Of a DNA stretch of 64,000 bases, positions 1-60,913 are shown one piece after another (position 1 is the stretch's first letter; every line of letters starts with the position of its first letter). The DNA is from Alphaproteobacteria bacterium (lineage in GTDB: Bacteria > Pseudomonadota > Alphaproteobacteria > Rs-D84): NCBI GenBank assembly GCA_016927735.1, contig JAFGMC010000012.1, forward strand, positions 13,093-77,092, given 5' to 3'. Below the pieces are notes generated by a model. It had not been told where the DNA came from and searched no databases. It saw only the letters and a program-made list of their open reading frames with translations. The position numbers and the translations under genes were made by a program.

Positions 1-179
1 ATCTGGCGAATTGATGATGTCAACAACATCTCCTTTGAAAATAGGTAGTTGGTATTTTCCATCTACAACACCACCAAAATTTTCAGAATTTAAGTTATCA
101 CGTGCAACAATACCAAGTATGCCTAATGTTTCTGAATTTGATAAACTGATGCAAAGCACATGGAAAGATTAATTAAAAA

Positions 180-1511
180 ATGAAAATAAAAGAAACTATT
201 TTAAATAAAAATAAATCAACATTGGCTGAGCGTGGCGGAATGATGGTTGAGCTTTTGCTTACCTTGGCATTGGTCGCTATTATTTTACCATTTATTGTAA
301 ATTTTCAAAAATCAAGAATAGATAGGGCTCAGAATATTGCAATTGCAAAAGAAATGAAGGTTATTCAATCTGGTTTGGAAAAATATATAGATTCTAATAA
401 AAAAGAACTTCTTAAAACAGTTGGGAAAAATATAACACGTGTAAAAATTGAAGAACTGGAAGAATATGGTGTACCAATTGATTCTTTGAAAAAATACGGT
501 GATAACTTTCAAATACGTATAATTAAATCTGGTAATACTGATGGTCATTCAATATTACAAGGTGTAATTGTTTTAAATGATAAAGATATATCACCCATAC
601 GAACCCGCGAGATTATAAATCTTGGTGATGACAAAATGGGTTTTGTTGAAGAAAATAAAGCTTTTGGTGCATTTGGAACCTGGCATGGGGACGCTGTTGA
701 TTTTGGAATCGGTGGTTTAAATGGGATTATTAAAACAACTGAAACTATTTTGGATTCTGAAAAATATTTATGGAGATTACCTTCTACAAACGAAACCGAT
801 GCCACAATGCTTTCAAATTTAAATTTATCTGGTCATAATATAATCAGTGCAAAATTTGTAGATTCAGATATTGCAAAATTTGAAGAAATTATAAAAACAG
901 ATAAAATAATTTCAGATAAAATTGTTTTTCAAAACAGAACTACTGTTGATAAAAACTTTAATGCATCTGATGCCGTTGTTTCTGGGACATTATCTTCTGA
1001 TTCCAGAGGTATGGAAATATCAAACAATTTAAACCTTGCTGATACTGCAAAACTTTCAAGTTTTACAACTAATGATTTATGGGCAACTAATTTAAACCTA
1101 TCTGGATTATCTATTTCCACAGATAATAATAACAACGCAACTATTTTAAAAATAAATAAAACCATTGATATGGTTGCTGGACATATAACCGCTATGTTCG
1201 TAACGGTTAGTTTTGATGGTTCTATAACACCAAAATTAGTCATAAAAAATAAAATTGAAGATTCAACTAATCCTGATTATTTTTGGAATGTTTCAGCAAA
1301 TACCGCATATCTATCAGATGCAACTTTCCCAGAATTAACCAGAATGGCATCATTGTCACTTAACAAAGAATATGATACAAATACAAAAACTAGTCAGATA
1401 TTCAGCACTGTGGTATCAAATAAGAACGCAACCGCTTCAGATTTTATGAACGCTTTATCTGAAATTCAAAAACAAGTTAAATTAAAATATAGCCAGTTGA
1501 ATTTAGATTAA
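180..1511 (+). CDS. Pilin-like protein with a prepilin-type N-terminal hydrophobic helix and a large repeat-bearing C-terminal domain; function unknown
   Basis: ATG at 180. The N-terminus ...AERGGMMVELLLTLALVAIILPF has Gly, a Glu about 5 residues later, and a hydrophobic helix, as in type IV pilin/pseudopilin leaders (degenerate match). The motif NLNLSG/NLNLAD occurs three times. No enzymatic motif seen. Confidence 0.45.
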   Translation: MKIKETILNKNKSTLAERGGMMVELLLTLALVAIILPFIVNFQKSRIDRAQNIAIAKEMKVIQSGLEKYIDSNKKELLKTVGKNITRVKIEELEEYGVPIDSLKKYGDNFQIRIIKSGNTDGHSILQGVIVLNDKDISPIRTREIINLGDDKMGFVEENKAFGAFGTWHGDAVDFGIGGLNGIIKTTETILDSEKYLWRLPSTNETDATMLSNLNLSGHNIISAKFVDSDIAKFEEIIKTDKIISDKIVFQNRTTVDKNFNASDAVVSGTLSSDSRGMEISNNLNLADTAKLSSFTTNDLWATNLNLSGLSISTDNNNNATILKINKTIDMVAGHITAMFVTVSFDGSITPKLVIKNKIEDSTNPDYFWNVSANTAYLSDATFPELTRMASLSLNKEYDTNTKTSQIFSTVVSNKNATASDFMNALSEIQKQVKLKYSQLNLD

Positions 1512-1531
1512 TATATGGTATAACTTAAAGC

Positions 1532-2035
1532 ATGAAAACAGTATGCAGCTTTTGTAAAACCGAATATACATTAAATTCTGTGCCAACATGTCCTGTCCAA
1601 TGTGCTGTTTGTGGTCATACATGGAATGTTCCTGCGCCGCATCATAAAAATTCATTTCTGGTTTTTATTGCTGCATTATGTGCATTAATGGCGGCATCTA
1701 TATTCACATTTGTTGTAATTACCCAGCACCATGAAAATAATATTCAAAAAAACCCATTGGTTGCAGAAATTTCTAATATAAATAAAACAACTGATGATTT
1801 GGGTGTACAACACTTTGTTGTTAATGGGTTTGTGACCAATCAATCGAAAAATATTTATGGTGTGCCTGATCTTGTAATTGTATCATTTGACAATAATGGA
1901 AAAATAATTGCACAACAAAAGTTTTTTGCATCAGCAACATTACTGGAAGCTGGTAACAAAGCACCCTTTTCACATACTTTGTCTGTACCAACCGATGGTG
2001 TACACAAAATAACTGTTAAATTAAAAAGTAATTAA
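1532..2035 (+). CDS. Zinc-ribbon (MJ0042-type, CxxC...CxxC) single-pass membrane protein with a DUF3426-like C-terminal domain
   Basis: N-terminus is MKTVCSFCKTEY...CPVQCAVCGHTW, followed by a hydrophobic segment FLVFIAALCALMAASIFTFVVI. It starts 20 nt after the preceding stop. Confidence 0.55.
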   Translation: MKTVCSFCKTEYTLNSVPTCPVQCAVCGHTWNVPAPHHKNSFLVFIAALCALMAASIFTFVVITQHHENNIQKNPLVAEISNINKTTDDLGVQHFVVNGFVTNQSKNIYGVPDLVIVSFDNNGKIIAQQKFFASATLLEAGNKAPFSHTLSVPTDGVHKITVKLKSN

Positions 2036-2046
2036 AGGTGTTAAAT

Positions 2047-2511
2047 ATGAAAAAATTTAGTCACATACTTTTGTTTTTACTGTGCCTTGTACCTTTTGCG
2101 TCAAACGCCACAGACCCAGTGCCAATTATTCGTCGTAGTATATTTTCTACCAGTACCGACTGGGAAGCTGTGACCGGTATATACTTATCTCAATTCGATG
2201 TTGAATTCTATGTTGATAAACACTTGGTTAATAATGGTTTAGAATTATATTTTCTTGACGGGTTCCCTTGTTTTGCACAAACTGACTCTTCAAGAATTTG
2301 GATTGATAGAAACAACAAGAATGATAACAAAATCAGATTAACTTGTTTATTTGCTCCAAAAACTGTTTATTTTGCATGGCGTAACGCTGCACGCGATGCA
2401 TCACAAGATAAAACAACTGGAATACTGGAATGCCCTGTCAGTTTTGATAATAATTTAAAAATAGATTTATCGAAATGCACCAAGGGTAAAGATTGGAAAG
2501 AATATAGGTAA
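2047..2511 (+). CDS. Small secreted protein, unknown function
   Basis: The track ORF opens with GTG at 2038. The ATG at 2047 gives MKKFSHILLFLLCLVPFASNA, a Sec-type signal peptide. Contains five Cys. Tightly packed between its neighbours. Confidence 0.5.
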   Translation: MKKFSHILLFLLCLVPFASNATDPVPIIRRSIFSTSTDWEAVTGIYLSQFDVEFYVDKHLVNNGLELYFLDGFPCFAQTDSSRIWIDRNNKNDNKIRLTCLFAPKTVYFAWRNAARDASQDKTTGILECPVSFDNNLKIDLSKCTKGKDWKEYR

Positions 2512-2519
2512 TAAAAAAT

Positions 2520-3491
2520 ATGACAGAAAGTAGAGTTTTTAAAGTTTATGATAATGATATTGGTCAAAGGTTGGATAAATTTCTGGCGTTTCAACTGCCT
2601 GAATTTTCACGCAGTGAAATTCAAAAATTCAATGTAGAAAAGCTGGTTAATAATAAAAAGGTTGCAATAAAATTTTCTGATAAAATAAAACACGATGAAG
2701 AATTTATTGTCGATGTTCCAACAAACCAAACTGTTTCTGAAATGCCAAAAGCATCTTCTGATTTTGAATTAAGTATTACATACGAAGATGATGATATTAT
2801 TGTTATAAATAAACCCCGTGGAATTGTTATGTACCCTGCTGCTGGTAATCCAACAGGAACATTGGTGCAAAATATTTTGTCCCATACAACCTTGTCTGGT
2901 CTGGGCGGTTCAAGCAGACCTGGTGTTGTTCATAGATTAGATAAAGATACCAGTGGTGTTGTAATTTTGGCAAAATCTGACGCGGCATATCGTGAATTGA
3001 TAAAAACTTTTTCAGAACATGACCTGACCAGAAAATATGTTGCATTTGTTTGGGGAATTCCAACATGGGAAAGCGCAGAGATTACTGGAAATATCACACG
3101 ATCCAGCAGAAACCGGCAAAAAATGACAATGGTTAAACGTGGCGGTAAAGAAGCACAAACAAATGTTGAGCTTATGAATATCTGGGAAAAAGACAATATT
3201 TCGGAAATACGTTGTACATTGTTAACTGGACGAACCCATCAAATCAGGGTTCATTTATCTGGTCATGGATTCCCTGTATTATGTGATCCTGTTTATGGTC
3301 GTGGATCCAGCCGAATTGGCAGTGTAAAAAATCCAGAATTATTAGAATTTTTAAAAACAAATACCGGGCAAATGTTGCATGCCGAGGTTTTAGAACTGAA
3401 ACACCCAATAACTGGTGAACAAATGCGTTTTAAATCCAGGCTGCCAGGGGACATGCAATCATTGAAAGATATTCTTAATTATACTGAATAA
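2520..3491 (+). CDS. rluD: 23S rRNA pseudouridine synthase, RluA/RluD family
   Basis: S4-like N-terminus, catalytic motif HRLDKDTSGVVILAKS, and C-terminal HQIRVH motif. Confidence 0.85.
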   Translation: MTESRVFKVYDNDIGQRLDKFLAFQLPEFSRSEIQKFNVEKLVNNKKVAIKFSDKIKHDEEFIVDVPTNQTVSEMPKASSDFELSITYEDDDIIVINKPRGIVMYPAAGNPTGTLVQNILSHTTLSGLGGSSRPGVVHRLDKDTSGVVILAKSDAAYRELIKTFSEHDLTRKYVAFVWGIPTWESAEITGNITRSSRNRQKMTMVKRGGKEAQTNVELMNIWEKDNISEIRCTLLTGRTHQIRVHLSGHGFPVLCDPVYGRGSSRIGSVKNPELLEFLKTNTGQMLHAEVLELKHPITGEQMRFKSRLPGDMQSLKDILNYTE

Positions 3492-3562
3492 TTTCTGTAT
3501 TATTTTGTTTGTCTAGTTATAGTTTTGTGGTATAATGAAGCAATGAATAATGGAGTTAGGGG

Positions 3563-6500
3563 ATGATTTTTCTGAAAAGATTGGTTGGTTTTGTAGCTGT
3601 TTTAACAGTTGTTCCAACAGTATTCGCTGCAACGGCACGCCCGAGCATAATTACAACTGCGTCATCTAGAATGCCTACTATGACCACTCAGATAAGTGGA
3701 AATACATCGTCTTCCACAACAACAACTGTGACACTTTTGGTTGATACAGAATGTATCGAGGCATACACTGATTGTGTGAAGGGCGCTGATGTTTGTGGTC
3801 CAAACTTTGAAGAATGTACAAACAAGACCCTGTTTTATGGAAAAAAACCACAATGTGCCAGTACTTTGATGCAGTGCAAAACATCTGGGGTTCTCAGTCT
3901 GTTCGGTACAAGTAATCAAACCTATTTTTCAAATAAAAATTCAGCCGGTGAATATGTTTACCCTACAAATGGAAGTGTTTTGGGTCAATTGATAGAGGCC
4001 GCGTATGTAAACAATCGTTATGACACCAGTACTTGTGTTAAAAGATATACAAGTTGCTTGAAGAAAAATGATATTTGCGGTTCAGACTTTGAACTTTGCA
4101 CCAGTAATACAGAATTTAGAACACAAAAAATATTCTGTGAATCAACATTGGCAAGATGCCAAGATGATGGTAAAACAGAATTGTTTGGTTCAACAAATAC
4201 AGCGGCCAGTCCAGCTGCTGACAGTCGTTTGGGTGTTATGATTTCCGAAGGTGCTGCCTTGGCTGCTGTTAACGCAGTTGCAACATGCTATAAGGTTATC
4301 GACCAATGTATGTTACAAGCATGCTCAAAAAATCCGTACGAATGTAAAGAAGGTGCATCTCATACTTTGGTTGATGCAGCTGGGAATACATTTGTTGATG
4401 ATCCAACAACAACTACAACACCTTATATAACTGATAATGGTGCCGTTAACCGTACTGAGATTGCAGGATTTATCAAAAATGCTTGTTATGACACAATTGG
4501 TGCAAACAAATTCTGCTATGCAACATTTATTGGAAATGGCGCAATGCCAACAAATGCACAATTGCAAGATGAAGATAACAAAGATACAATTTACTCTGAT
4601 GCTTACTCTTCACGCATGAATGATTCTATGAAATCAAAGATTGATGATTTAATCGAAATATTTGATACAAAAACAAAACAAAAATGTCAAAACACAATCA
4701 CATCATGTGCTATGCGTTCATGTGGTGGTGGCAGTGGTGCTGCTTGCTATGCATCTGCATTCAATTCTGCGAATACAATCAAGGGTGTGACAAATCCTGC
4801 TACTTTGGCTGATATTAAATATGGTTGCGAAGCTGTTGTTAATAATGACACATATTGTAAATATTCTGTCGCGACATTCGAAACTGCAACCGGTATTATT
4901 GGTTTCTTATCTGGCAGTTTATTTGATATATTATTCACAGCTGCTGATGATACAAGTGTTACAAATCCAGACGCAGTTGGTGCGGTTGCAACATTGAATT
5001 CAAAATTGTCATTGTCATACAACCAGGCTTCTTTAGATAATATGAAGAAACAATGTCAAACAATTGCAACAGGTTGTGTAAAATCAATGTGTGGAACAGA
5101 TTATACCAACTGTTACCGTAACCGTACTGATGTTTACTCTACACTGACAAATACTGGTGATAACAGTTTTGATAAAAGTATGAACAAGGTTGGTGGTGTT
5201 TTGGATCATACAATTATATTGGGATTGTGCCTTAACACTATTAAAAATAATCCAGTCTGTGAAGAACACATCAAAGCCGAAGCTGCACGTCGCACAGCAA
5301 GTGTAAGTACCGCTGATTCTTGGGGTGCCGGTATAAACAGCACACGTGACGGATGGTTGGGTGCTGGTACATATGGTGCAACATTGACTGGTGATACAGT
5401 TCAAGATGTTGATGCTGATGGAAATCTGTTATGCACAACAGGCGCAGACAGCACTGGCGATACTGGACGCTGCGACAGTTCAAGTGGCAGATACATATAT
5501 CCAAAAATGATTTCAGAAAGTGCTTATAATATTGCGCAAACAGAACGCTCTGTATTTAATGACTTGGTATATGACTTGGAAGTTGAAGCCCAGGCAAATT
5601 ATAATGCAAAACTGACAAAACAACAAAATATGTGTATGTCAAATAACAGTGGTGGAATCATAGGTTCTCGTGAAAATGGTAGCACATTTATGTGGGTAAA
5701 ATTAAAGAATAGTAAGGTTCCAACCAATTATGCAATGAATGGTCTACAAAACAATCAGTTCGTTGCCAGCAATGACATTTATGGAAGCTTCTGCCGTATA
5801 CGCGTGACATTGCAATCAGATGATAAATATATCCAAGATGCAATTAATGATGGCAGAGATTGGAGTACAGCATACTTTGCAGCCGGTGATACATTCACAT
5901 GCGGCAGCTGGATATCTGGTGATGAATTAGAAACAATATCTAACGTTGTTGGTGGTAAGGCAAAAAGTGAAGCAACCAGTGGTGACAGTCGTACACGTAC
6001 ATGGTTGACACTTGCTGGAACAGTATTGGGTGGTGTCGGTGGTGGCGTCGCAACAAATGCATTACAAAAAGGATCTTTGGGTGGTTTGTTGGGAACAAAA
6101 AGAACAGACACCAATACAACAGACGCTAATCGTTGCAAAACATTGGCAAAATTGTACCAAGATGAAAAAGATGGTGTTGCTGCCAAGGCAACTGGTGAAT
6201 CTGCAATTGCAACAGCAGAATCATTGGGTGTCAAAGAAGATTTAACAGCACCTATTAAAAGATCTGTTCAAAAAGCTGGCACAGTAACAAGTCCTGCAAA
6301 TCCAGAAGCTGACGCCGTAAATAAACAAAGTGCTAATAATGCTATGGATTCATTGAAAACATTGTGTGAATCAGAGTTAACTAGTGCTAAAGGCAGTAAT
6401 ACAAAAACCAAAACTACATTACTTGGTGCTGGTGTTGGTGCAGTGGCTGGTGGTGCATTAACATACTTTGCAACACGTGACATCCAAGATGCCCAAGGCG

Positions 6501-6622
6501 ACAATGCAGCTACTAAGGCCAGACAAGAATGGATGGATGAAGTTGGTAAGCATATACGTTGCTATATCGGCGCAGATGAAGTCGGTATGTATGGTGATAT
6601 AATCAGTACAGAAATGGAATAA
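3563..6622 (+). CDS. Large secreted cysteine-rich repeat protein with two C-terminal glycine-zipper hydrophobic segments; unknown family
   Basis: SD GGAG upstream of ATG 3563. Signal peptide MIFLKRLVGFVAVLTVVPTVFA, then an S/T-rich linker. 38 Cys, with five C-x6-C-x4/6-C-x6/7-C units. Gly-rich hydrophobic segments at about nt 6002-6063 and 6415-6472. A strong terminator follows directly. Confidence 0.8.
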   Translation: MIFLKRLVGFVAVLTVVPTVFAATARPSIITTASSRMPTMTTQISGNTSSSTTTTVTLLVDTECIEAYTDCVKGADVCGPNFEECTNKTLFYGKKPQCASTLMQCKTSGVLSLFGTSNQTYFSNKNSAGEYVYPTNGSVLGQLIEAAYVNNRYDTSTCVKRYTSCLKKNDICGSDFELCTSNTEFRTQKIFCESTLARCQDDGKTELFGSTNTAASPAADSRLGVMISEGAALAAVNAVATCYKVIDQCMLQACSKNPYECKEGASHTLVDAAGNTFVDDPTTTTTPYITDNGAVNRTEIAGFIKNACYDTIGANKFCYATFIGNGAMPTNAQLQDEDNKDTIYSDAYSSRMNDSMKSKIDDLIEIFDTKTKQKCQNTITSCAMRSCGGGSGAACYASAFNSANTIKGVTNPATLADIKYGCEAVVNNDTYCKYSVATFETATGIIGFLSGSLFDILFTAADDTSVTNPDAVGAVATLNSKLSLSYNQASLDNMKKQCQTIATGCVKSMCGTDYTNCYRNRTDVYSTLTNTGDNSFDKSMNKVGGVLDHTIILGLCLNTIKNNPVCEEHIKAEAARRTASVSTADSWGAGINSTRDGWLGAGTYGATLTGDTVQDVDADGNLLCTTGADSTGDTGRCDSSSGRYIYPKMISESAYNIAQTERSVFNDLVYDLEVEAQANYNAKLTKQQNMCMSNNSGGIIGSRENGSTFMWVKLKNSKVPTNYAMNGLQNNQFVASNDIYGSFCRIRVTLQSDDKYIQDAINDGRDWSTAYFAAGDTFTCGSWISGDELETISNVVGGKAKSEATSGDSRTRTWLTLAGTVLGGVGGGVATNALQKGSLGGLLGTKRTDTNTTDANRCKTLAKLYQDEKDGVAAKATGESAIATAESLGVKEDLTAPIKRSVQKAGTVTSPANPEADAVNKQSANNAMDSLKTLCESELTSAKGSNTKTKTTLLGAGVGAVAGGALTYFATRDIQDAQGDNAATKARQEWMDEVGKHIRCYIGADEVGMYGDIISTEME

Positions 6623-6643
6623 TAAATCCATTAACAATTAAAT

Positions 6644-6672
6644 AAAAAGACCGGTGTTATACCGGTCTTTTT
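6644..6672 (+). terminator. Rho-independent terminator after the Cys-rich protein gene
   Basis: Stem AGACCGGT / ACCGGTCT with loop GTTAT, followed by a T run. Confidence 0.8.
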
Positions 6673-6840
6673 ATTAGATAAACATATTTTACAACATAAT
6701 AGTATTATCGCATTAGCAAGCAGAATAAAGAAAGTTCTATCAATAATGTTTAATGTGTAACTTAACTATATAGCACAGTGCCCTTTATATATCAATACAG
6801 CCGTATTAATTCGCTATTGCCCCAATGATAAATGAATAAT

Positions 6841-6868
6841 AAAATACCCACCAAATGGTGGGTATTTC
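6841..6868 (-). terminator. Rho-independent terminator of the TPR gene
   Basis: Stem TACCCACC / GGTGGGTA with loop AAAT. A T run follows on the minus strand. Confidence 0.7.
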
Positions 6869-6887
6869 TTTATTTAAATCTAATACT

Positions 6888-7889
6888 TTATCGCATTTCA
6901 GATATCAATTTATTCAATCTTTCAATATTATCAACATCATTCAATGCAACTGCAATTGTATATGCGGATTCCAAATCACTTCTTGCAGATTCTAAATCAC
7001 CCATATTTAAATTTAAGGCTGCTGATTTTTCAAAATATCCCATTGCGCGACGTGATAAGTCTTCACGTGCCTCTGCATTTGTTGCGCCTTGGATTTGTTC
7101 AGATATAACACGTACTGCTGACATATAATCATTTGCAGCTTCTTTGTATTTATTTAATGCAGTATATGCCTCGGCACGTTCTGCATAAACAGAAGGGTTA
7201 ACAACACCTTCTGGACGCGCCAGTGAATTAGTATAATCCGCTATTGCGCCATCCCAGTTTTTTAACCACAAATTCAACTGTCCACGTTTTGCATAAATGT
7301 CACGTAATTGTAAAACATCGTTTGGACGTACCGCACGTGCAGCCAAAGCATTATTTATATCTGATAATGCAGATGAATAATCTTCCATTCTTGTGTATAA
7401 CAATGCACGATCATAAAATGCAACAGAATTCAAAGAATCTATTTCAACAGCAGTATTGAAATCTTCAACTGCATTGTTATATTTCCCAGATTGCATATAT
7501 GCTTCACCACGTAAAATGAAAGCATCCACTGATGGGTTATCTGTCTCAATCGCAGCTGTTAAATCACTAATTGCCTCATCAATATTACCAGCCAATAATT
7601 TTTCCTTGCCGGAATTCAAATATTGATTTGGTTTAATCAATGCTTCTTCAGTTATTTCCACATTATTTGTAATTGGATGTAATATTCCATGACTGCGTCC
7701 CAGAATATAAAATGTTGCAGAGATAAAGAATATTATAATAAACCAATAAACATAAATTGAAAGAGACCATGCATTAAAATGCGGTTTAACAACTTCTATA
7801 TTTTTTGTTATAGGTGATGTTTTCTTAGAAACTGGCTTTGACGTTTTCTTAGGGGCCAACTTTTTCTTAGTTGATTTTTTATTCTTCAT
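6888..7889 (-). CDS. TPR-repeat protein with a Lys-rich N-terminal tail and one transmembrane segment
   Basis: MKNKKSTKKKLAPKK... is followed by the hydrophobic stretch WSLSIYVYWFIIIFFISATFYILG. Repeated A/Y/G-patterned 34-aa TPR-like units follow. Confidence 0.7.
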   Translation of the reverse strand: MKNKKSTKKKLAPKKTSKPVSKKTSPITKNIEVVKPHFNAWSLSIYVYWFIIIFFISATFYILGRSHGILHPITNNVEITEEALIKPNQYLNSGKEKLLAGNIDEAISDLTAAIETDNPSVDAFILRGEAYMQSGKYNNAVEDFNTAVEIDSLNSVAFYDRALLYTRMEDYSSALSDINNALAARAVRPNDVLQLRDIYAKRGQLNLWLKNWDGAIADYTNSLARPEGVVNPSVYAERAEAYTALNKYKEAANDYMSAVRVISEQIQGATNAEAREDLSRRAMGYFEKSAALNLNMGDLESARSDLESAYTIAVALNDVDNIERLNKLISEMR

Positions 7890-7915
7890 TAAATTCTCCC
7901 TTCCTTGGTGTAATT

Positions 7916-8611
7916 TTAGAAGGATTTTTTCAATACGTCAATGCTTTTCTGTGGAATTTCAATAATTTCTCCGACAGAAATATTTTCAAGATTTATAGTT
8001 CCATAAGATATTCTGTGCAATTTTTTCACTGGTAAATTACAAGCTGCCAAAACTATACGAATTTCGTTTTTTTTACCTTCGGTGATTGTAATTTTTAATT
8101 CATTGTTTTCTAAAACTTCTATATTCATTGGACGATAATTAATTCCATCAACGTTAATACCAGAACGTGCAGGCTCTAATTTTGAAAAATCATCCCCTTC
8201 AACTTTTGCAATATAAACCCTTGGGATTCCGGATGATGGCAAGGTAAGCTTTCGTGCCAATTCGCCATCATTTGTAAGCAATAATAATCCTGTAGTTTTA
8301 TAATCCAAACGACCAATATATTTAAGATTATTATACTGCTGGGGCAAAATATCGTATATTGTTTTTCGGCCCTCTGGGTCACTTGCGGTTGTCATTGTGT
8401 TAATAGGTTTATAAAAAGCATACAATTTTGTTTCATTATTTGATTCAATAACTCTTCCAGAAACTGAAATTTCTTCTGACCCATCAACAAAAAATACAGG
8501 GCTGGTTATAACCACATTGTTTACAGTGACCACACCAGATTCAATTAGCCTTTCTGCTGCGCGACGCGACGCCATACCACTATCTGCCAAGAATTTTGCT
8601 ATTCGTATCAT
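7916..8611 (-). CDS. rRNA pseudouridine synthase, RsuA/RluB/RluF family
   Basis: S4 domain (LADSGMASRRAAERLIESG) and catalytic motif GRLDYKTTGLLLLTNDG. Overlaps the rsmE stop by 4 nt. Confidence 0.85.
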   Translation of the reverse strand: MIRIAKFLADSGMASRRAAERLIESGVVTVNNVVITSPVFFVDGSEEISVSGRVIESNNETKLYAFYKPINTMTTASDPEGRKTIYDILPQQYNNLKYIGRLDYKTTGLLLLTNDGELARKLTLPSSGIPRVYIAKVEGDDFSKLEPARSGINVDGINYRPMNIEVLENNELKITITEGKKNEIRIVLAACNLPVKKLHRISYGTINLENISVGEIIEIPQKSIDVLKKSF

Positions 8612-9264: not shown

Positions 9265-9291
9265 GAGTGTCTTTTTTATTTGGTCTTTTTC

Positions 9292-9300
9292 TGGTATAAT
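9292..9300 (+). promoter_or_regulatory. Candidate extended -10 promoter element (TGGTATAAT) for the T4CP-like operon
   Basis: TGnTATAAT at 9292-9300 lies in the divergent gap between rsmE and the VirD4-like gene. The first ATG (9310) is only 10 nt downstream and has no SD, so the mRNA may be leaderless or short-leadered. Confidence 0.35.
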
Positions 9301-9309
9301 TGTATCACA

Positions 9310-11511
9310 ATGGCAAGCAAGTTCAAGATTTTATCCGCAGGTGGTACTTCCAAGGGATTGAATATATTCAAGTCGTCCTCGTACAAGGAACATCTACAAA
9401 CGCCAATGGCCGCGCTTTTCTGGAAAATGCGTTGGGCAGCTGGTATTTGGCTCGTTTCTTTTGCTGCTTTTGGTATGGCATTTGCTGTTGAACATATTTG
9501 GCGATATGGCTGGTCGCCAGCAACCACAAAATGGATTTCTATTTATTTTCAAAATATGCTGACATCTGGTGGATTATCAATTTTGGCAGAAGTTCCAGCT
9601 TGGCTGACACGAACATTTATGCAAACAGATATGGCATGTGTGACACCATTAATACCAATTATTATATATTACCTTTTATCTGACGCGACATTGATTGGTG
9701 AATTTAATCCACATGGTAATGATAAATTCGCCGAAAAATCTTCTAACAAGGCATCCAAAGAAGATATTGAAAAAATGGGATTATTAAAGGGATTTATGAT
9801 GGTTTTGGGGTACTTTAAGAAAAAACCCCTGATGATGAACGAATGCCTATCAACCCTTTGTGTTGCACCCCCTGGGACCGGAAAAACCCAAGGCGTTGTT
9901 CTGCCAACAATTTTTGAATGTAATACTGTTTCAATGATTATAAATGACCCAAAGCCAGAATTAAAACAGGCGTCCAGTGCCTATCGTGCAACTATTGGTC
10001 CTGTATTTATTATGAACTGGGCGGGACAAGATGACCCACAAAATGGTATATATTACCCCAGCTGGAATCCACTATCACCTGAACATGTACCGTTTAACCA
10101 AGAACAACGTGATTTATATATTGATTCTATGTGCAGTGTTTTGATTGCAGAAAAGGCGTCCAGTTCTGCAGATCCACACTGGACAATATCTGGTCGTGCG
10201 GCACTTTCTGGATTAATACAGTTTATGGTTTCAAAAATTGAACGTGCCAAAGCCGATGATTATTTCTATTCAAGAATCACATCTGGTACATTTGATGAAG
10301 AAGATGCAACTGTTCTAAGTGATTATTATATTTCAATGATAAACGATCCAAATGCATATGCTGCAAATGCAAGGTTGCGAGCAAAACAATTGGACGCTAT
10401 GAATTATGTTCATATCGGAACCTGGGCAAATATTCCAGATGCCTGGCGTGGAAAAGAAGCATCACTTTCCATGATACTGGACTGGTTAAACGCAAATCAA
10501 ATTCGTATTGCAGAAGATATTGAAAATCGTCGTAAGCAAGGTGACCAAATGGTTATGATGGCCGACCCGATGAAGGATTTATTCTTGGATGCAGTTAATG
10601 AAGCGCGACAATTCTCATATGCTCATCGTGCCATACTTGAATTAACACAACTTGCAAATACACCTGACAAGGAACGTGGATCTATTTTATCAACCGTAAT
10701 GGCGGGACTGGGTATTTTCCGAAATGCCGCTGTTCGTAATCGTACCAGTCATTCTGATTTTCATTTTTCTGACCTGCGTGGATTAAAAGATCCACGCGAC
10801 GGAAAAATTAAACCCGTGACTGTTTATTTATCTATCAATATGGTTGATGCTGAAGCATTAAATCCAATAACTGGTATATTTATTGAACTGATGTCCAGTT
10901 ATCTTCTTTCAAATGCACCAGATCAGATAAAAGATGGTCAAAAAATGGGACCATTCCCAGTATTATTTGTATTGGATGAAATGCCAAAGATGCAGAAATT
11001 ACAAGCTGTTATTCAAGGACCAGATTTGGGACGCGGTCAGAAAATATCCTATTTAATTATCGGTCAGGATCTGCATCAGATTGCAGAAAAGTATGGTAAT
11101 GATGCGGCCGCAACCATTGTTTCAACAACCGCCGCCAAGGTTGTATTACGACAAAATGATCCAGATACCGCAAAAAGATTTTCTGATATGATGGGATTCA
11201 AAATGAAAATTAAAACAGATAAAGATGGAAAAGATAGCCCCCCAAGTGAAGAAATACTCTATACCCCTATGGACATTATGAAACTATCAGAAAAGAAACA
11301 GTTAGTAATATTCCAGGGTTATTATAACAGACCAATTGAGGCTGATCATCAGCCTGCCTGGAAAGACGAAAGATTAAAAGGTTTTATGAACATGGGCGAA
11401 AGTTCACCTTTGCCAGAATTTCTGATACCCGTACATCATGCTGCAATGGGATATGGCGGAACACCAAAGGTCTATAATCCAATGACCAAAGAAATAAAAG
11501 TTTTAGCATAA
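9310..11511 (+). CDS. VirD4/TraG-family type IV coupling protein homolog (membrane-anchored FtsK/HerA-like ATPase)
   Basis: N-terminal hydrophobic segments. Walker A CVAPPGTGKTQGVVLPT at about nt 9860-9895 and Walker B VLFVLDEMPKM. TraG/VirD4-like ISYLIIGQDLHQIAEKYG...VVLRQNDPDTAKRFSDMMG. The track ORF opens at TTG 9280. ATG 9310 was chosen but the start is uncertain (another ATG at 9406). Confidence 0.8.
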   Translation: MASKFKILSAGGTSKGLNIFKSSSYKEHLQTPMAALFWKMRWAAGIWLVSFAAFGMAFAVEHIWRYGWSPATTKWISIYFQNMLTSGGLSILAEVPAWLTRTFMQTDMACVTPLIPIIIYYLLSDATLIGEFNPHGNDKFAEKSSNKASKEDIEKMGLLKGFMMVLGYFKKKPLMMNECLSTLCVAPPGTGKTQGVVLPTIFECNTVSMIINDPKPELKQASSAYRATIGPVFIMNWAGQDDPQNGIYYPSWNPLSPEHVPFNQEQRDLYIDSMCSVLIAEKASSSADPHWTISGRAALSGLIQFMVSKIERAKADDYFYSRITSGTFDEEDATVLSDYYISMINDPNAYAANARLRAKQLDAMNYVHIGTWANIPDAWRGKEASLSMILDWLNANQIRIAEDIENRRKQGDQMVMMADPMKDLFLDAVNEARQFSYAHRAILELTQLANTPDKERGSILSTVMAGLGIFRNAAVRNRTSHSDFHFSDLRGLKDPRDGKIKPVTVYLSINMVDAEALNPITGIFIELMSSYLLSNAPDQIKDGQKMGPFPVLFVLDEMPKMQKLQAVIQGPDLGRGQKISYLIIGQDLHQIAEKYGNDAAATIVSTTAAKVVLRQNDPDTAKRFSDMMGFKMKIKTDKDGKDSPPSEEILYTPMDIMKLSEKKQLVIFQGYYNRPIEADHQPAWKDERLKGFMNMGESSPLPEFLIPVHHAAMGYGGTPKVYNPMTKEIKVLA

Positions 11512-11549
11512 ATTTGACGCGATATATCGTAAAGGTTATAATTCCTGTT

Positions 11550-12752
11550 ATGAAGTTTAAAGTTATATTTTCATTATTTGTTTTACCAGTTTTATTATCT
11601 GCATGTGCAACTTCTGCACACCTGGATTCTGTTCGCAGCGATTACGCAAATGCAGAATTTGCAAAACTGACCGCTGATAAAAAATCGGATAATCTAGATT
11701 TATTAATCGGAGCAGACGCCGCTTTACAAAATGGTGAATTCAAACGCAGTGACGATCTATTCGAAACATTTAATAGAAGAAACATAGATCCAACCAGCAC
11801 CAGTATAAGTAGCGAGTTGGGTAAACTGGCTGGTGGTCAGATGGCCAGTTCTTACAAGCCTTACATGATGGATTATATGTTTGTATCATACTATCAAATA
11901 TGGGATGCTATTCTGGACGGTCGCATGAATGATGCACGCGTTATTATAAATCAATCTTATTCGCGCCAACAAAAAATGAGTACTGCATACAGAAAATTGG
12001 TTTCTAAACGTCAAAAATCAGATTTGGCAAATAAATTAAAAACAGATACATCTAATTGGTCTGCATATTCAGATATTATGAATCCTGCATTAACATATTT
12101 GGCTGGTATATATTTCTTGAATATTGGTGAATACGAAAATGCGCGACAATATTTGGTACGTAGCAGTGGTATGATGCCAGAAAATACATTTATTACATCT
12201 GATTTGGAATCTGCTGAAAAAGGAATTGCACCAAAAAATACAGCATGGATATTTATTGAAACCGGATTTGCGCCGCGCCTGCGTGAAAAAAAAGCCACTG
12301 TCCCATGGTTGGTTGGAAAAAATATGCAGTTAATATCTATTGCAACATCTTATCCAGAAAAATTCAGTGGTTCTGCCGCTGTGCCTGATATGTCACAAAA
12401 ATTGGCTGATATTGATTCTATGTTTATAACTGAATTCAAAGAATATCAAATAAACGATGCTTTGCGTGCTTTTACCAAGGCTGTTTCAAACTCTGCCCTA
12501 CAATCTGCAACACATGATAAAATAGGGGGATTTGGTGGTGTATTAAGTGCAGCATATTCAATCGCAACAACAAATGCGGAAATTCGCTCTTGGGTAACTT
12601 TGCCACAGCGTATTTATTTACTGCGTATCAAAAAAGATAAATCCGGATTGATTAAATTAAATTCTAGTGATACGATTAACGTGGACTATTCGGGTAATCA
12701 TTTAATTTATATTAGAAACAACAATATAAAGAAAATTAAAATCAAAAATTAA
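11550..12752 (+). CDS. Lipoprotein of unknown function (possibly COG3014-like)
   Basis: ATG 11550 gives MKFKVIFSLFVLPVLLSAC with a lipobox LLSA-C. It lies 38 nt after the T4CP stop. The family assignment is tentative, from memory only. Confidence 0.6.
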   Translation: MKFKVIFSLFVLPVLLSACATSAHLDSVRSDYANAEFAKLTADKKSDNLDLLIGADAALQNGEFKRSDDLFETFNRRNIDPTSTSISSELGKLAGGQMASSYKPYMMDYMFVSYYQIWDAILDGRMNDARVIINQSYSRQQKMSTAYRKLVSKRQKSDLANKLKTDTSNWSAYSDIMNPALTYLAGIYFLNIGEYENARQYLVRSSGMMPENTFITSDLESAEKGIAPKNTAWIFIETGFAPRLREKKATVPWLVGKNMQLISIATSYPEKFSGSAAVPDMSQKLADIDSMFITEFKEYQINDALRAFTKAVSNSALQSATHDKIGGFGGVLSAAYSIATTNAEIRSWVTLPQRIYLLRIKKDKSGLIKLNSSDTINVDYSGNHLIYIRNNNIKKIKIKN

Positions 12753-12765
12753 CAAGGAGAAAGAA

Positions 12766-13380
12766 ATGAAAATATCATCAATAGCAGTTTTTGCTTCGTT
12801 ATTGGTTGCACTGGGCGGCTGTGGCGAAACAAATGTTGTGGATTTAAATAACCAGGCCGAAGTTGCAGGTATGCAAAATGTTATGGAATTGGAATATCGT
12901 GATTGGACCAAGACAGCTGAAAATATGACATCCAGCATGTTGAAAAGTGGTGCATTTGGACGTGTCAAAGATCCTATTATTGCAATGGGTCCAATGAAGA
13001 ATGATACAATGCAACGTTTTGATACAGATATTATGACCAAGAAAATCAGAACTGTTATTGTAAATTCTGGTCGCGCACAAATTGCAACTAACTTTACTGG
13101 CGAAGATTCAACCAGTGATACTGTTCGCAATACACGTGGTAATTCAGAATATGCTGCAAACACAATAGTTGCCAAGGGCACATTGGTTGCACCAAATATG
13201 TCGCTGTCTGGAAAAATGATTCAACGTAATTTGGAATTGAAATCTGGATGGTTTTCAAGCACAGATACACGCGTTGAATATTATTTGCAGTTAACATTGA
13301 CAGACTTGAAGACAGGTTTGTCAGTATGGGAAGATGAACAGCCAATCGTAAAAGAAGGTGATCACGCCCCAACATGGTAA
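12766..13380 (+). CDS. LpoB/YcfM-like (COG3417) lipoprotein
   Basis: SD AAGGAGA upstream and lipobox LVALGG-C. The blocks YRDWTKTAENMTSSML, IIAMGPMKNDTMQRFDTDIMTKKIRTVIVNSGRAQIA and YYLQLTLTDLKTGLSVWEDE align by eye with E. coli LpoB. Confidence 0.6.
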   Translation: MKISSIAVFASLLVALGGCGETNVVDLNNQAEVAGMQNVMELEYRDWTKTAENMTSSMLKSGAFGRVKDPIIAMGPMKNDTMQRFDTDIMTKKIRTVIVNSGRAQIATNFTGEDSTSDTVRNTRGNSEYAANTIVAKGTLVAPNMSLSGKMIQRNLELKSGWFSSTDTRVEYYLQLTLTDLKTGLSVWEDEQPIVKEGDHAPTW

Positions 13381-29350: not shown

Positions 29351-29427
29351 TGGTGGATGTTGAGGGACTCGAACCCCCGACCCTCTCGGTGTAAACGAGA
29401 TGCTCTAGCCAACTGAGCTAAACATCC
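29351..29427 (-). tRNA. tRNA-Val (anticodon TAC), CCA encoded
   Basis: Reverse complement folds as a cloverleaf. Acceptor GGATGTT/AACATCC, anticodon stem TCTCG/CGAGA, loop TTTACAC, T-loop TTCGAGT. Confidence 0.9.
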
Positions 29428-42133: not shown

Positions 42134-42207
42134 TGGAGGCCCGGGTCGGAATCGAACCGGCATACAAGGATTTGCAGTCCTCTGCATAACCACTCTGCCA
42201 CCGGGCC
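42134..42207 (-). tRNA. tRNA-Cys (anticodon GCA), CCA encoded
   Basis: In the reverse complement: acceptor GGCCCGG/CCGGGCC, anticodon loop CTGCAAA, T-loop TTCGATT. Confidence 0.9.
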
Positions 42208-52519: not shown

Positions 52520-52933
52520 TTATTTAACAGAGGTTGCTGCATTTCTGTTTTGTGACCAAACTTCTTCGCCTGTACCCATAACAGATGGACGTTCTTTACC
52601 ATAAGAAATAGTAGAGATACGTTTTGAACTGATTCCATCTTTTACGATAACAGATTTAGCTGCGGCTGCACGATGTGCACCCAATGCCAGATTGTATTCT
52701 GTTGAACCACGTTCGTCGCAATTACCAGCGATTTGAATTTTTGTATCTGGGTGATTTTTCATATATAATGATTGACCCAAAAGGTTATTGTTTGCATCCT
52801 TAGAAATTTCTGAAGAATCGAAAGCAAAGAATACTTTTTGACCATTCATATCAGAAGGTTCTACGATTGAACCACCGCAAGCAGCCAATAATCCAGCGAT
52901 ACCGGCCAACATTGCAAAGTTTTTTATTTTCAT
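52520..52933 (-). CDS. pal: Peptidoglycan-associated lipoprotein (OmpA-family)
   Basis: Lipobox LLAA-C. OmpA-like domain F.FDSSEI......L......IQIAGNCDERGSTEYNLALGAHRA. Confidence 0.85.
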   Translation of the reverse strand: MKIKNFAMLAGIAGLLAACGGSIVEPSDMNGQKVFFAFDSSEISKDANNNLLGQSLYMKNHPDTKIQIAGNCDERGSTEYNLALGAHRAAAAKSVIVKDGISSKRISTISYGKERPSVMGTGEEVWSQNRNAATSVK

Positions 52934-54432: not shown

Positions 54433-54509
54433 GGGTGATTAGCTCAGTTGGCTAGAGCGTTACGTTGACATCGTAGAGGTCGTTGGTTCGAGCCCAATAT
54501 CACCCACCA
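54433..54509 (+). tRNA. tRNA-Val (anticodon GAC), CCA encoded
   Basis: Acceptor GGGTGAT/ATCACCC, anticodon stem TTACG/CGTAG with loop TTGACAT, T-loop TTCGAGC. Confidence 0.9.
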
Positions 54510-60837: not shown

Positions 60838-60913
60838 GCCGGTTTAGCTCAGTTGGTAGAGCATCTCATTCGTAATGAGGGGGTCAGAGGTTCGAATCCC
60901 CTAACCGGCACCA
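60838..60913 (+). tRNA. tRNA-Thr (anticodon CGT), CCA encoded
   Basis: Acceptor GCCGGTT/AACCGGC, anticodon stem TCTCA/TGAGG with loop TTCGTAA, T-loop TTCGAAT. Confidence 0.9.

Follow-up and report, generated by a model that had tools for sequence, protein, structure and literature searches.

We analysed a 64,000-nucleotide (nt) stretch of DNA from an alphaproteobacterium of the GTDB order Rs-D84 (hereafter the window; assembly GCA_016927735.1, contig JAFGMC010000012.1, forward-strand positions 13,093 to 77,092) and, within it, a gene for a large cysteine-rich protein. The open reading frame (ORF) lies on the plus strand at window positions 3563 to 6622, starts with ATG and, stop codon included, encodes 1019 amino acids (aa) with 38 Cys residues (3.7%), reproducing the coordinates and the count given in an earlier note on this DNA. 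Full-length homologues are 52 to 75% identical to the protein. The gene is preceded by rluD and followed, on the opposite strand, by a gene for a tetratricopeptide repeat (TPR) protein.

The highest-scoring promoter-like site within window positions 1 to 7200 is located in the 71-bp gap downstream of rluD (TTGTCT-16 nt-TGgTATAAT, 3509 to 3536, plus strand; 10 of 12 matches and an extended -10 TG). An extended -10 box, TGnTATAAT, was present about 35 nt upstream of the ATG at 15 of 30 related loci examined. Direct reading of the sequence revealed a Shine-Dalgarno region, GGAG...AGGGG (3552 to 3562, plus strand), with GGAG 7 nt before the start codon. Downstream of the gene is an intrinsic terminator hairpin with a 15-bp stem and A- and T-runs on its flanks, which is bidirectional (6641 to 6675). 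A hairpin with a T-run follows the stop codon at essentially all of the 30 related loci. The recurrence of the -10 box and of the hairpin shows that the gene is its own transcription unit, in agreement with the earlier description of a monocistronic gene with its own Shine-Dalgarno sequence and terminator.

A search of 5.8 billion proteins returned 988 matches, and every named homologue was a 'hypothetical protein'. The best 120 of the 988 were mostly full-length (about 1015 to 1190 aa), contained 36 to 53 Cys residues (mostly 38 to 46) and were unnamed or 'hypothetical protein'. When one genome per GTDB species was scanned, relatives were detected in 245 of 250 pattern-matched stretches. All 245 came from gut metagenome-assembled genomes (MAGs) labelled Alphaproteobacteria, 'Rickettsiales' or 'Candidatus Enterousia', with human, ruminant, horse, chicken, mouse and termite as sources; one relative sits on a circular chromosome of 958 kb. 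Searched with a profile, 1.84 billion representative proteins yielded only 260 clusters (50% identity) at E≤0.001. The most distant members of the family (830 to 1100 aa, 17 to 34% identity) belong to termite- and animal-gut 'Rickettsiales/Alphaproteobacteria' MAGs and have the same plan. Iterating the search with a profile built from the 16 members that diverge most gave six matches and no new lineage. In Rs-D84, genomes are smaller than 1 Mb, and respiration, standard transporters and most biosynthesis are missing; the order is predicted to consist of partner-dependent obligate symbionts or parasites, and many of its membrane proteins are unexplained (PMC12306168). The expectation of a reduced-genome host was thus correct.

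Codon comparison of close genome pairs showed strong purifying selection on the N-terminal part of the protein (the N-domain, about 790 aa; ratio of nonsynonymous to synonymous substitution rates, dN/dS, 0.03 to 0.19). Together with full-length conservation in 245 species genomes, invariant Cys residues and a conserved promoter and terminator, this refutes the idea of a fast-evolving filler ORF without conserved function; nothing but the lack of annotation speaks for that idea, and we give it virtually no credence. The gene is real, conserved and restricted to one lineage.

No known family or fold was found. Pfam, NCBIfam and PHROGs gave nothing significant for the window protein alone or for all 36 members of the alignment; across these 36 members, 31 families appeared at E≤1, none of them significantly. 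Searches of PDB sequences with phmmer and with the family profile returned only compositional matches. The AlphaFold models are mostly alpha-helical plus one small alpha/beta domain. The full-length model had a mean predicted local distance difference test score (pLDDT) of 67, with helical modules at about 75 to 88, and produced no Foldseek match at E≤0.001 in PDB and BFVD. A confident model of residues 590 to 1019, built with 114 sequences, reached a mean pLDDT of 83 (91 to 97 in the alpha/beta domain and the tail). Against PDB it gave generic four-helix bundles only and no match at E≤0.001, the alpha/beta domain included. The protein therefore belongs to an undescribed family without detectable relatives of known function or structure, and the profile, Pfam and Foldseek checks upheld the earlier proposal of a new, nameless family.

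The protein begins with a predicted Sec-type signal peptide (residues 1 to 22; 3563 to 3628, plus strand, as for all parts of the protein below). It has a basic n-region, MIFLKR, an 11-residue hydrophobic core and the cleavage site VFA↓A, features which were read from the sequence, are kept in the homologues and read as a classical signal for Sec and signal peptidase I. The mature protein starts with a conserved motif, (T/S)ARPS(V/I)-x6-7-R(M/L)P(T/S)(M/L), at residues 23 to 41 (3629 to 3685). Among 116 relatives, R26 was found in 110, and R36 and P38 in 106 each. Across 1.66 Mb of DNA from related loci the motif was confined to this family, and its use as a general sorting signal was rejected on that ground. 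Then follows a Ser/Thr-rich linker of low conservation (residues 42 to 60; 3686 to 3742), which is predicted to be disordered (pLDDT 29 to 43). The order of signal peptide and linker is thus as first proposed.

Five helical modules with six Cys residues each together span residues 62 to 580. Four-Cys units of the form C-x6-C-x4/6-C-x6/7-C begin at residues 64, 158, 242, 375 and 498, as stated in the earlier note, which regarded them as five copies of one unit. The positions were correct; shared ancestry could be demonstrated for the first two modules only. Modules 1 and 2 (residues 62 to 121 and 156 to 215, plus spacer; 3746 to 4207) are a tandem duplication with 25 identities in 60 positions, and hhalign aligned them with a probability of 99.6% (E = 8e-24). 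Other module pairs were weak or not significant (the best, modules 2 and 5, had a probability of 51%), and this includes modules 3 to 5 (residues 237 to 580; 4271 to 5302; pLDDT about 75 to 88) compared with modules 1 and 2. Homology is thus demonstrable for modules 1 and 2 only and not for all five. Distant relatives have a single copy where the window protein has modules 1 and 2, and four rather than five Cys modules; the duplication is specific to the Enterousia-like branch.

Family identity in the modules is 0.65 to 0.81. The 24 Cys residues of modules 2 to 5, those of modules 3 to 5 included, together with C691, C744, C780 and C1000, are kept in 115 to 116 of 116 non-redundant relatives. 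The other proteins of the window mostly have 0 to 4 Cys residues each. Judged from the sequences, the Cys pattern exceeds chance. The spacing is conserved in the homologues, so the non-conservation named earlier as a reason to dismiss the gene was not observed.

The modules are followed by a conserved alpha/beta domain (residues 610 to 813; 5390 to 6001; pLDDT mostly 91 to 97) containing C624, C637 and the invariant C691, C744 and C780. Next comes the first of two glycine zippers. Zipper 1 (residues 814 to 846; 6002 to 6100) opens with an invariant tryptophan, W814, and has repeated GxxxG motifs; zipper 2 occupies residues 952 to 970 (6416 to 6472). Their Gly-rich hydrophobic segments are located at residues 814 to 834 and 953 to 970 with 118 residues between them, so the two C-terminal zipper segments that had been noticed are present. 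The GxxxG repeats (G819/823/827, G824/828, G837/841 and G955/959/963) follow a Gly pattern that is conserved in 36 homologues. On the Kyte-Doolittle scale with a 19-residue window, hydropathy is 1.13 for zipper 1 and 1.42 for zipper 2, under that of typical inner-membrane helices. In many members an aromatic residue follows zipper 2, and in the models long helices flank both zippers. Between the zippers lies a hypervariable loop (residues 847 to 951; 6101 to 6415), a helical bundle with C858 and C935. The protein ends in a conserved tail (residues 971 to 1019; 6473 to 6619; pLDDT 91 to 96) consisting of a helix plus beta-hairpins, with a single Cys, C1000, kept in 115 of 116 relatives. The C-terminus reads ...STEME and is without a C-terminal aromatic beta-signal.

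The loop is the most variable part of the protein. Across the family, identity is 0.20 to 0.33 in the loop versus 0.73 in the tail. In five clusters of proteins with at least 90% overall identity, 31 to 88% of the loop sites were variable, compared with 1 to 6% in the N-domain and 0 to 15% in the tail. In the three clusters measured, pairwise loop identity fell as low as 22 to 42% at an N-domain identity of 95 to 99%. Along close genome pairs, nucleotide identity dropped from about 0.96 to about 0.6 between the zippers and returned to 0.94 to 0.99 past zipper 2. The synonymous divergence (dS) of the loop was 1 to 2.9 versus 0.13 to 0.55 in the flanks. The nonsynonymous divergence was also strongly elevated (dN/dS about 0.1 to 0.8, mostly 0.3 to 0.4), and some pairs shared the same allele. 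The inter-zipper loop is a recombining hypervariable cassette with its boundaries at the zippers. Old alleles in young flanks mean that alleles are exchanged and diversity is maintained over the long term, a pattern characteristic of protein regions that face phage, immunity or a co-evolving partner. In the 64-kb window, tblastn and blastn detected no silent cassettes, no second copy of the loop or C-terminus and no template repeat of the diversity-generating retroelement type.

A second, weaker variable stretch was observed at residues ~582 to 650 (window 5306 to 5512), inside the otherwise conserved N-terminal part. Its family identity is 0.42 to 0.46, nucleotide identity dips to 0.62 to 0.89 in close pairs, and the less conserved Cys pair C624/C637 falls within it.

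A conserved framework around a hypervariable region is also found in Anaplasma Msp2/P44, Neisseria PorB/Opa and the central domain of flagellin; in the present family that region has old, recombining alleles and a raised dN/dS. Those proteins are beta-barrels or filament subunits. In contrast, the framework described here is helical and disulfide-rich with glycine-zipper anchors, and no paralogues or silent donors were detected in the window.

We counted the Cys residues of each segment in 105 to 109 non-redundant full-length members. The inter-zipper loop, which is 79 to 289 aa long, contained 0, 2, 4, 6 or 8 Cys residues, an even number in 104 of 105 members. The count for the mature N-domain was odd (35, 37, 39, 33, 31 and so on) in 102 of 105, the tail had exactly one Cys in 105 of 109, and the sum of N-domain and tail was even in 101 of 105. 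In members with long loops, beta-rich inserts bring Cys residues in pairs. Such beta-rich, Cys-rich inserts were seen in proteins P0047, P0048, P0062, P0077, P0081 and P0118, with no Pfam domain recognised, and a Pfam scan of three long or Cys-rich loop inserts yielded nothing. Separately, protein P0036 (1067 aa, encoded on a 4.4-kb contig) has a distinct Cys-rich C-terminal extension with a repeated C-x2-C-P-T-G-K-x-C-A-G-G and no Pfam domain.

The even loop count suggests that the loop forms its own disulfides; it would then lie outside the cytoplasm, in an oxidising compartment. The single Cys of the tail would pair with the odd Cys of the N-domain, which places N-domain and tail on one side of the membrane; with both on the same side, the two zippers should act as a hairpin. 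W814 and the aromatic residue after zipper 2 would then lie on the side of the N-domain and tail. The protein is probably stabilised by many disulfide bonds, and the parity pattern thus lends support to the earlier view of a disulfide-rich, extracytoplasmic protein.

A signal peptide plus two hydrophobic segments, read naively, would describe an inner-membrane protein with periplasmic N-domain and tail, ordinary transmembrane helices and a cytoplasmic loop. Pairing between N-domain and tail is also compatible with this arrangement. However, the even loop count in 104 of 105 members and the inserts that add Cys residues in pairs argue for an oxidising compartment, a recombining hypervariable cassette is unexpected for a cytoplasmic linker, and a hydropathy of 1.1 to 1.4 is low for inner-membrane helices. 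Oxidising conditions on both sides and the low hydropathy therefore make an inner-membrane location very unlikely, and the outer membrane fits better.

Based on these data, we propose an envelope protein that is anchored in the outer membrane, has a conserved base in the periplasm and exposes a variable head at the cell surface. After Sec export and cleavage of the signal peptide, about 790 residues would fold in the periplasm, first the chain of alpha-helical modules stapled by their Cys residues and then the alpha/beta domain. The two weakly hydrophobic GxxxG helices would form a membrane-embedded hairpin, for which the outer membrane is the most parsimonious location. The hairpin would return the C-terminal tail to the side of the N-domain, where C1000 would pair with the odd Cys. 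The inter-zipper domain of 80 to 290 residues, with disulfides of its own, would be displayed on the opposite side, at the cell surface. There it would be under diversifying or frequency-dependent selection and be exchanged between strains by recombination. For a gut bacterium that depends obligately on partners, the head may be an adhesin, a determinant of recognition or a structure targeted by phage or immunity. In this model the closest functional parallel is a variable surface protein held by a glycine-zipper anchor. To this reading, taken jointly with the view that the window gene is, as seen from the window, the founding member of a lineage-restricted and hitherto undescribed family of envelope proteins exported by Sec, we assign a probability of about 0.45. 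Conservation of the family, purifying selection, Cys parity, a hypervariable cassette bounded by the zippers and the lack of a known homologue or fold are what the data establish. Disulfide bonds, the hairpin, its placement in the outer and not the inner membrane, display at the surface and the function are what we infer; the strain-level hypervariable loop between the zippers favours the envelope or surface role suggested earlier.

Several points weigh against this proposal. Both zippers, the putative membrane helices, have a pLDDT below 50 in both AlphaFold models. The parity counts come from members that are not independent in phylogenetic terms. What hypervariability proves is recombination or strong pressure from outside; it does not prove a location. 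Distant members do not keep the upstream gene order and the downstream genes are conserved nowhere, so the genomic context gives no functional partner. No known machinery was identified that would move a folded, disulfide-bonded domain of 80 to 290 aa across the outer membrane, and we know of no precedent for helical outer-membrane anchors with a large inserted domain. Finally, no Dsb-type oxidase or Dsb-like CxxC protein was found in the window or the sampled loci, which are a small and redundant part of the genomes, and the route of disulfide formation is unexplained because members of the Rs-D84 lineage are anaerobes without a respiratory chain (PMC12306168).

The strictly anaerobic, non-respiring lifestyle (PMC12306168) and the absence of a Dsb gene from the sampled DNA would also suit a periplasmic metal-binding or redox protein in which the Cys residues are ligands of Zn, Fe-S or similar. 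We consider this highly improbable: the window protein has no CxxC or CxxCH motif (its spacings are x6, x4-7, x9 and x12), the strict even and odd parity across domains fits pairing and not clusters, and no metalloprotein family was matched.

The proposed surface protein resembles known envelope proteins in part. SlyB/Pcp, the rickettsial 17-kDa antigen, YfgH and OsmB (PF05433, PF13488, PF13441) are likewise exported envelope proteins with short, weakly hydrophobic GxxxG helices. In SlyB, YfgH and OsmB these are outer-membrane transmembrane glycine-zipper helices, which drive oligomerisation in SlyB and YfgH (bioRxiv 10.64898/2025.12.22.696046). In contrast to this group, the 38-Cys protein has no lipobox, as its signal peptide ends in ...PTVFA↓ATARPS with no Cys at the cleavage site, nor is there one in the consensus. 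Across the family the zippers are 79 to 289 residues apart instead of forming a compact hairpin of ~45 aa, and the 790-aa Cys-rich N-domain makes the protein about five to ten times larger. Pfam glycine-zipper scores of the window protein were 6.6 bits (threshold 24.2) and 8.3 bits (threshold 25), and sub-threshold matches on zipper 2 at E≤1 occurred in 3 to 4 of 36 members.

The chlamydial proteins OmcB and OmcA (PF03504) are also Cys-rich exported envelope proteins of host-dependent bacteria, and a structural role of disulfides is plausible in both cases. There is, however, no homology: OmcB is beta-rich, whereas our protein is alpha-helical in the models, and the single match to Chlam_OMP6 (1 of 36 members, E = 0.053, 14.3 bits versus a cut-off of 34.1) falls on residues 889 to 950 of the Cys-poor loop. 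The parallels to SlyB and Chlamydia drawn in the earlier note are thus no more than analogies; with Pfam scores below the gathering thresholds, they do not extend to family membership.

In an alternative reading, the protein is a periplasmic or monotopic scaffold. Its zippers would dip into one leaflet or oligomerise, with SlyB-family rings as the model, and it would be a disulfide-cross-linked stiffener or a tether from the outer membrane to the peptidoglycan, with the chlamydial Cys-rich outer membrane complex as the analogue of its role. Such a scaffold would need no export machinery past Sec. It would accommodate three segments that all look extracytoplasmic, the weakly hydrophobic zippers, conservation of the family across the 245 species-level genomes found and a slowly evolving N-domain, and the N-terminal motif on its flexible Ser/Thr linker could dock a partner. 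Nevertheless, a purely periplasmic location gives no reason for recombination and hypervariability to be restricted to the loop, where dS is up to ten-fold higher than in the flanks. In addition, there is no homology to OmcB/OmcA, and these genomes already encode tethers of the Pal and OmpA type. We regard the scaffold as unlikely.

The XaxA/YaxA toxins (PDB 6gy6, 6ek7) share with the family a coiled-coil stalk that leads into a Gly/Ala-rich hydrophobic 'foot' helix. Matches of the family profile (E = 0.033 to 0.14) were limited to the hydrophobic helix and the adjacent coiled coil. The toxins differ from the 38-Cys protein, which has a signal peptide, 38 Cys residues and a large domain between the hydrophobic helices, and is not encoded next to a partner subunit gene. 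The protein could nonetheless be a released or contact-delivered alpha-helical pore-former or anchor, with zippers that insert into a partner or host membrane and the loop as target-recognition head. The matches of the loop/zipper-2/helix region to the foot helix of XaxA (E = 0.033) and YaxA (E = 0.14), the long helices beside both zippers and the parasitic lifestyle predicted for the lineage (PMC12306168) point in this direction. We judge it rather improbable, given that the matches are far below significance and driven by composition, that Foldseek found no significant toxin match (MakA, E ~0.8) and that no gene for a partner 'B' subunit and no dedicated secretion genes are nearby. Moreover, the two helices could not insert from outside as a hairpin with a folded, disulfide-bonded domain sitting between them, and the 790-aa N-domain is under housekeeping-like constraint.

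TraN of F-type conjugation was also compared, since it is a Cys-rich exported envelope protein and a VirD4-type coupling protein is encoded 2.7 kb downstream in the window. TraN gave no Pfam/NCBIfam match at E≤10 and is missing from the 31 families that the 36 members reached at E≤1; the VirD4 neighbourhood is not conserved in relatives.

Turning back to the outer-membrane-anchored envelope protein, a bolder form of this reading is conceivable. The protein may be a new outer-membrane display device, in which a glycine-zipper hairpin and not a beta-barrel or lipid anchor threads a recombining, disulfide-stapled head through the membrane, a base of 790 residues is covalently clasped to the tail, and this lineage-defining protein serves as the attachment or recognition organelle with which Rs-D84/'Ca. 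Enterousia' bacteria contact the partner cells on which they depend. We hold this to be doubtful.

The genes around the locus were examined for synteny, which the earlier note had proposed to follow next to rluD. In Enterousia-like genomes the upstream order is conserved and consists of three pilin-like genes, a Zn-ribbon membrane protein gene, the gene of a 157-aa secreted four-Cys protein and rluD. It is gone in distant members, so synteny beside rluD holds within the Enterousia-like genomes and not beyond them. The pilin-like genes encode three tandem proteins of 380 to 450 aa with hydrophobic N-termini like those of type IV pilins, e.g. RGGMMVELLLTLALVAIILPF. They are found at window positions 180 to 1511 (plus strand) and, in the related locus L001, at 4056 to 5414, 5476 to 6609 and 6609 to 7919, and are syntenic with the Cys-rich protein gene only in Enterousia-like genomes. 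The proteins have a common L-N-(L/M)-x-G-(N/H)-x-I motif, one has a Cys-rich C-terminal end, and none has a Pfam/NCBIfam match. Conserved between these genes and rluD are the gene for a single-pass Zn-ribbon membrane protein (1532 to 2035, plus strand; Zn_ribbon_4, weak) and that for the 157-aa secreted protein (2038 to 2511, plus strand), which has no family match and whose homologue in L001 has four Cys residues.

The gene for the VirD4/TraG-type type IV coupling protein, with a TTG start, is located at 9280 to 11511 (plus strand). It is followed by genes for a lipoprotein with a weak TPR signal (11514 to 12752, plus strand) and an LpoB-like lipoprotein (12766 to 13380, plus strand). A functional link to VirD4 was rejected, as this neighbourhood is not conserved near the family gene in relatives. 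At 52520 to 52933 (minus strand) lies the gene of a Pal-like lipoprotein with the lipobox LLAAC and an OmpA-type C-terminal motif read by eye, so conventional tethers from the outer membrane to peptidoglycan exist in this organism. Elsewhere the window has the content of an ordinary chromosome (Der, a sigma factor, IF-2, NusA, LptF/G, LptD, PNPase, TruB, MutS, MreB and others). It includes four tRNA genes, Val-tac (29351 to 29427, minus), Cys-gca (42134 to 42207, minus), Val-gac (54433 to 54509, plus) and Thr-cgt (60838 to 60913, plus), and no other Rfam family reached the gathering score in the window.

One distant member, P0252, was seen in an unusual setting. It lies at 10001 to 12505 of a 22,505-nt related locus (L085, 1 to 22505) amid genes for a T7-like terminase, portal (Head-tail_con), capsid_2, tube and lysozyme, interleaved with DnaB, DapB and a ParA-like gene. 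A remnant prophage or a phage-like element that has been domesticated could account for this setting.

The guts of humans, livestock, birds and termites widely harbour Rs-D84/'Ca. Enterousia' bacteria, whose interaction with partner cells has so far no description (PMC12306168). The 38-Cys protein is one of the largest gene products of the lineage and combines strong constraint with a strain-specific recombining cassette. Its conserved N-domain could be used for detection and its loop for strain typing. To the structural catalogue the family would contribute an architecture of helical repeats stapled by disulfides, an alpha/beta domain that is apparently new and, if the proposed topology is true, the first glycine-zipper hairpin displaying a large domain. 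For the biology of these bacteria, it is the most obvious candidate found here for a determinant of surface recognition or attachment, or for a target of phage or immunoglobulin A.

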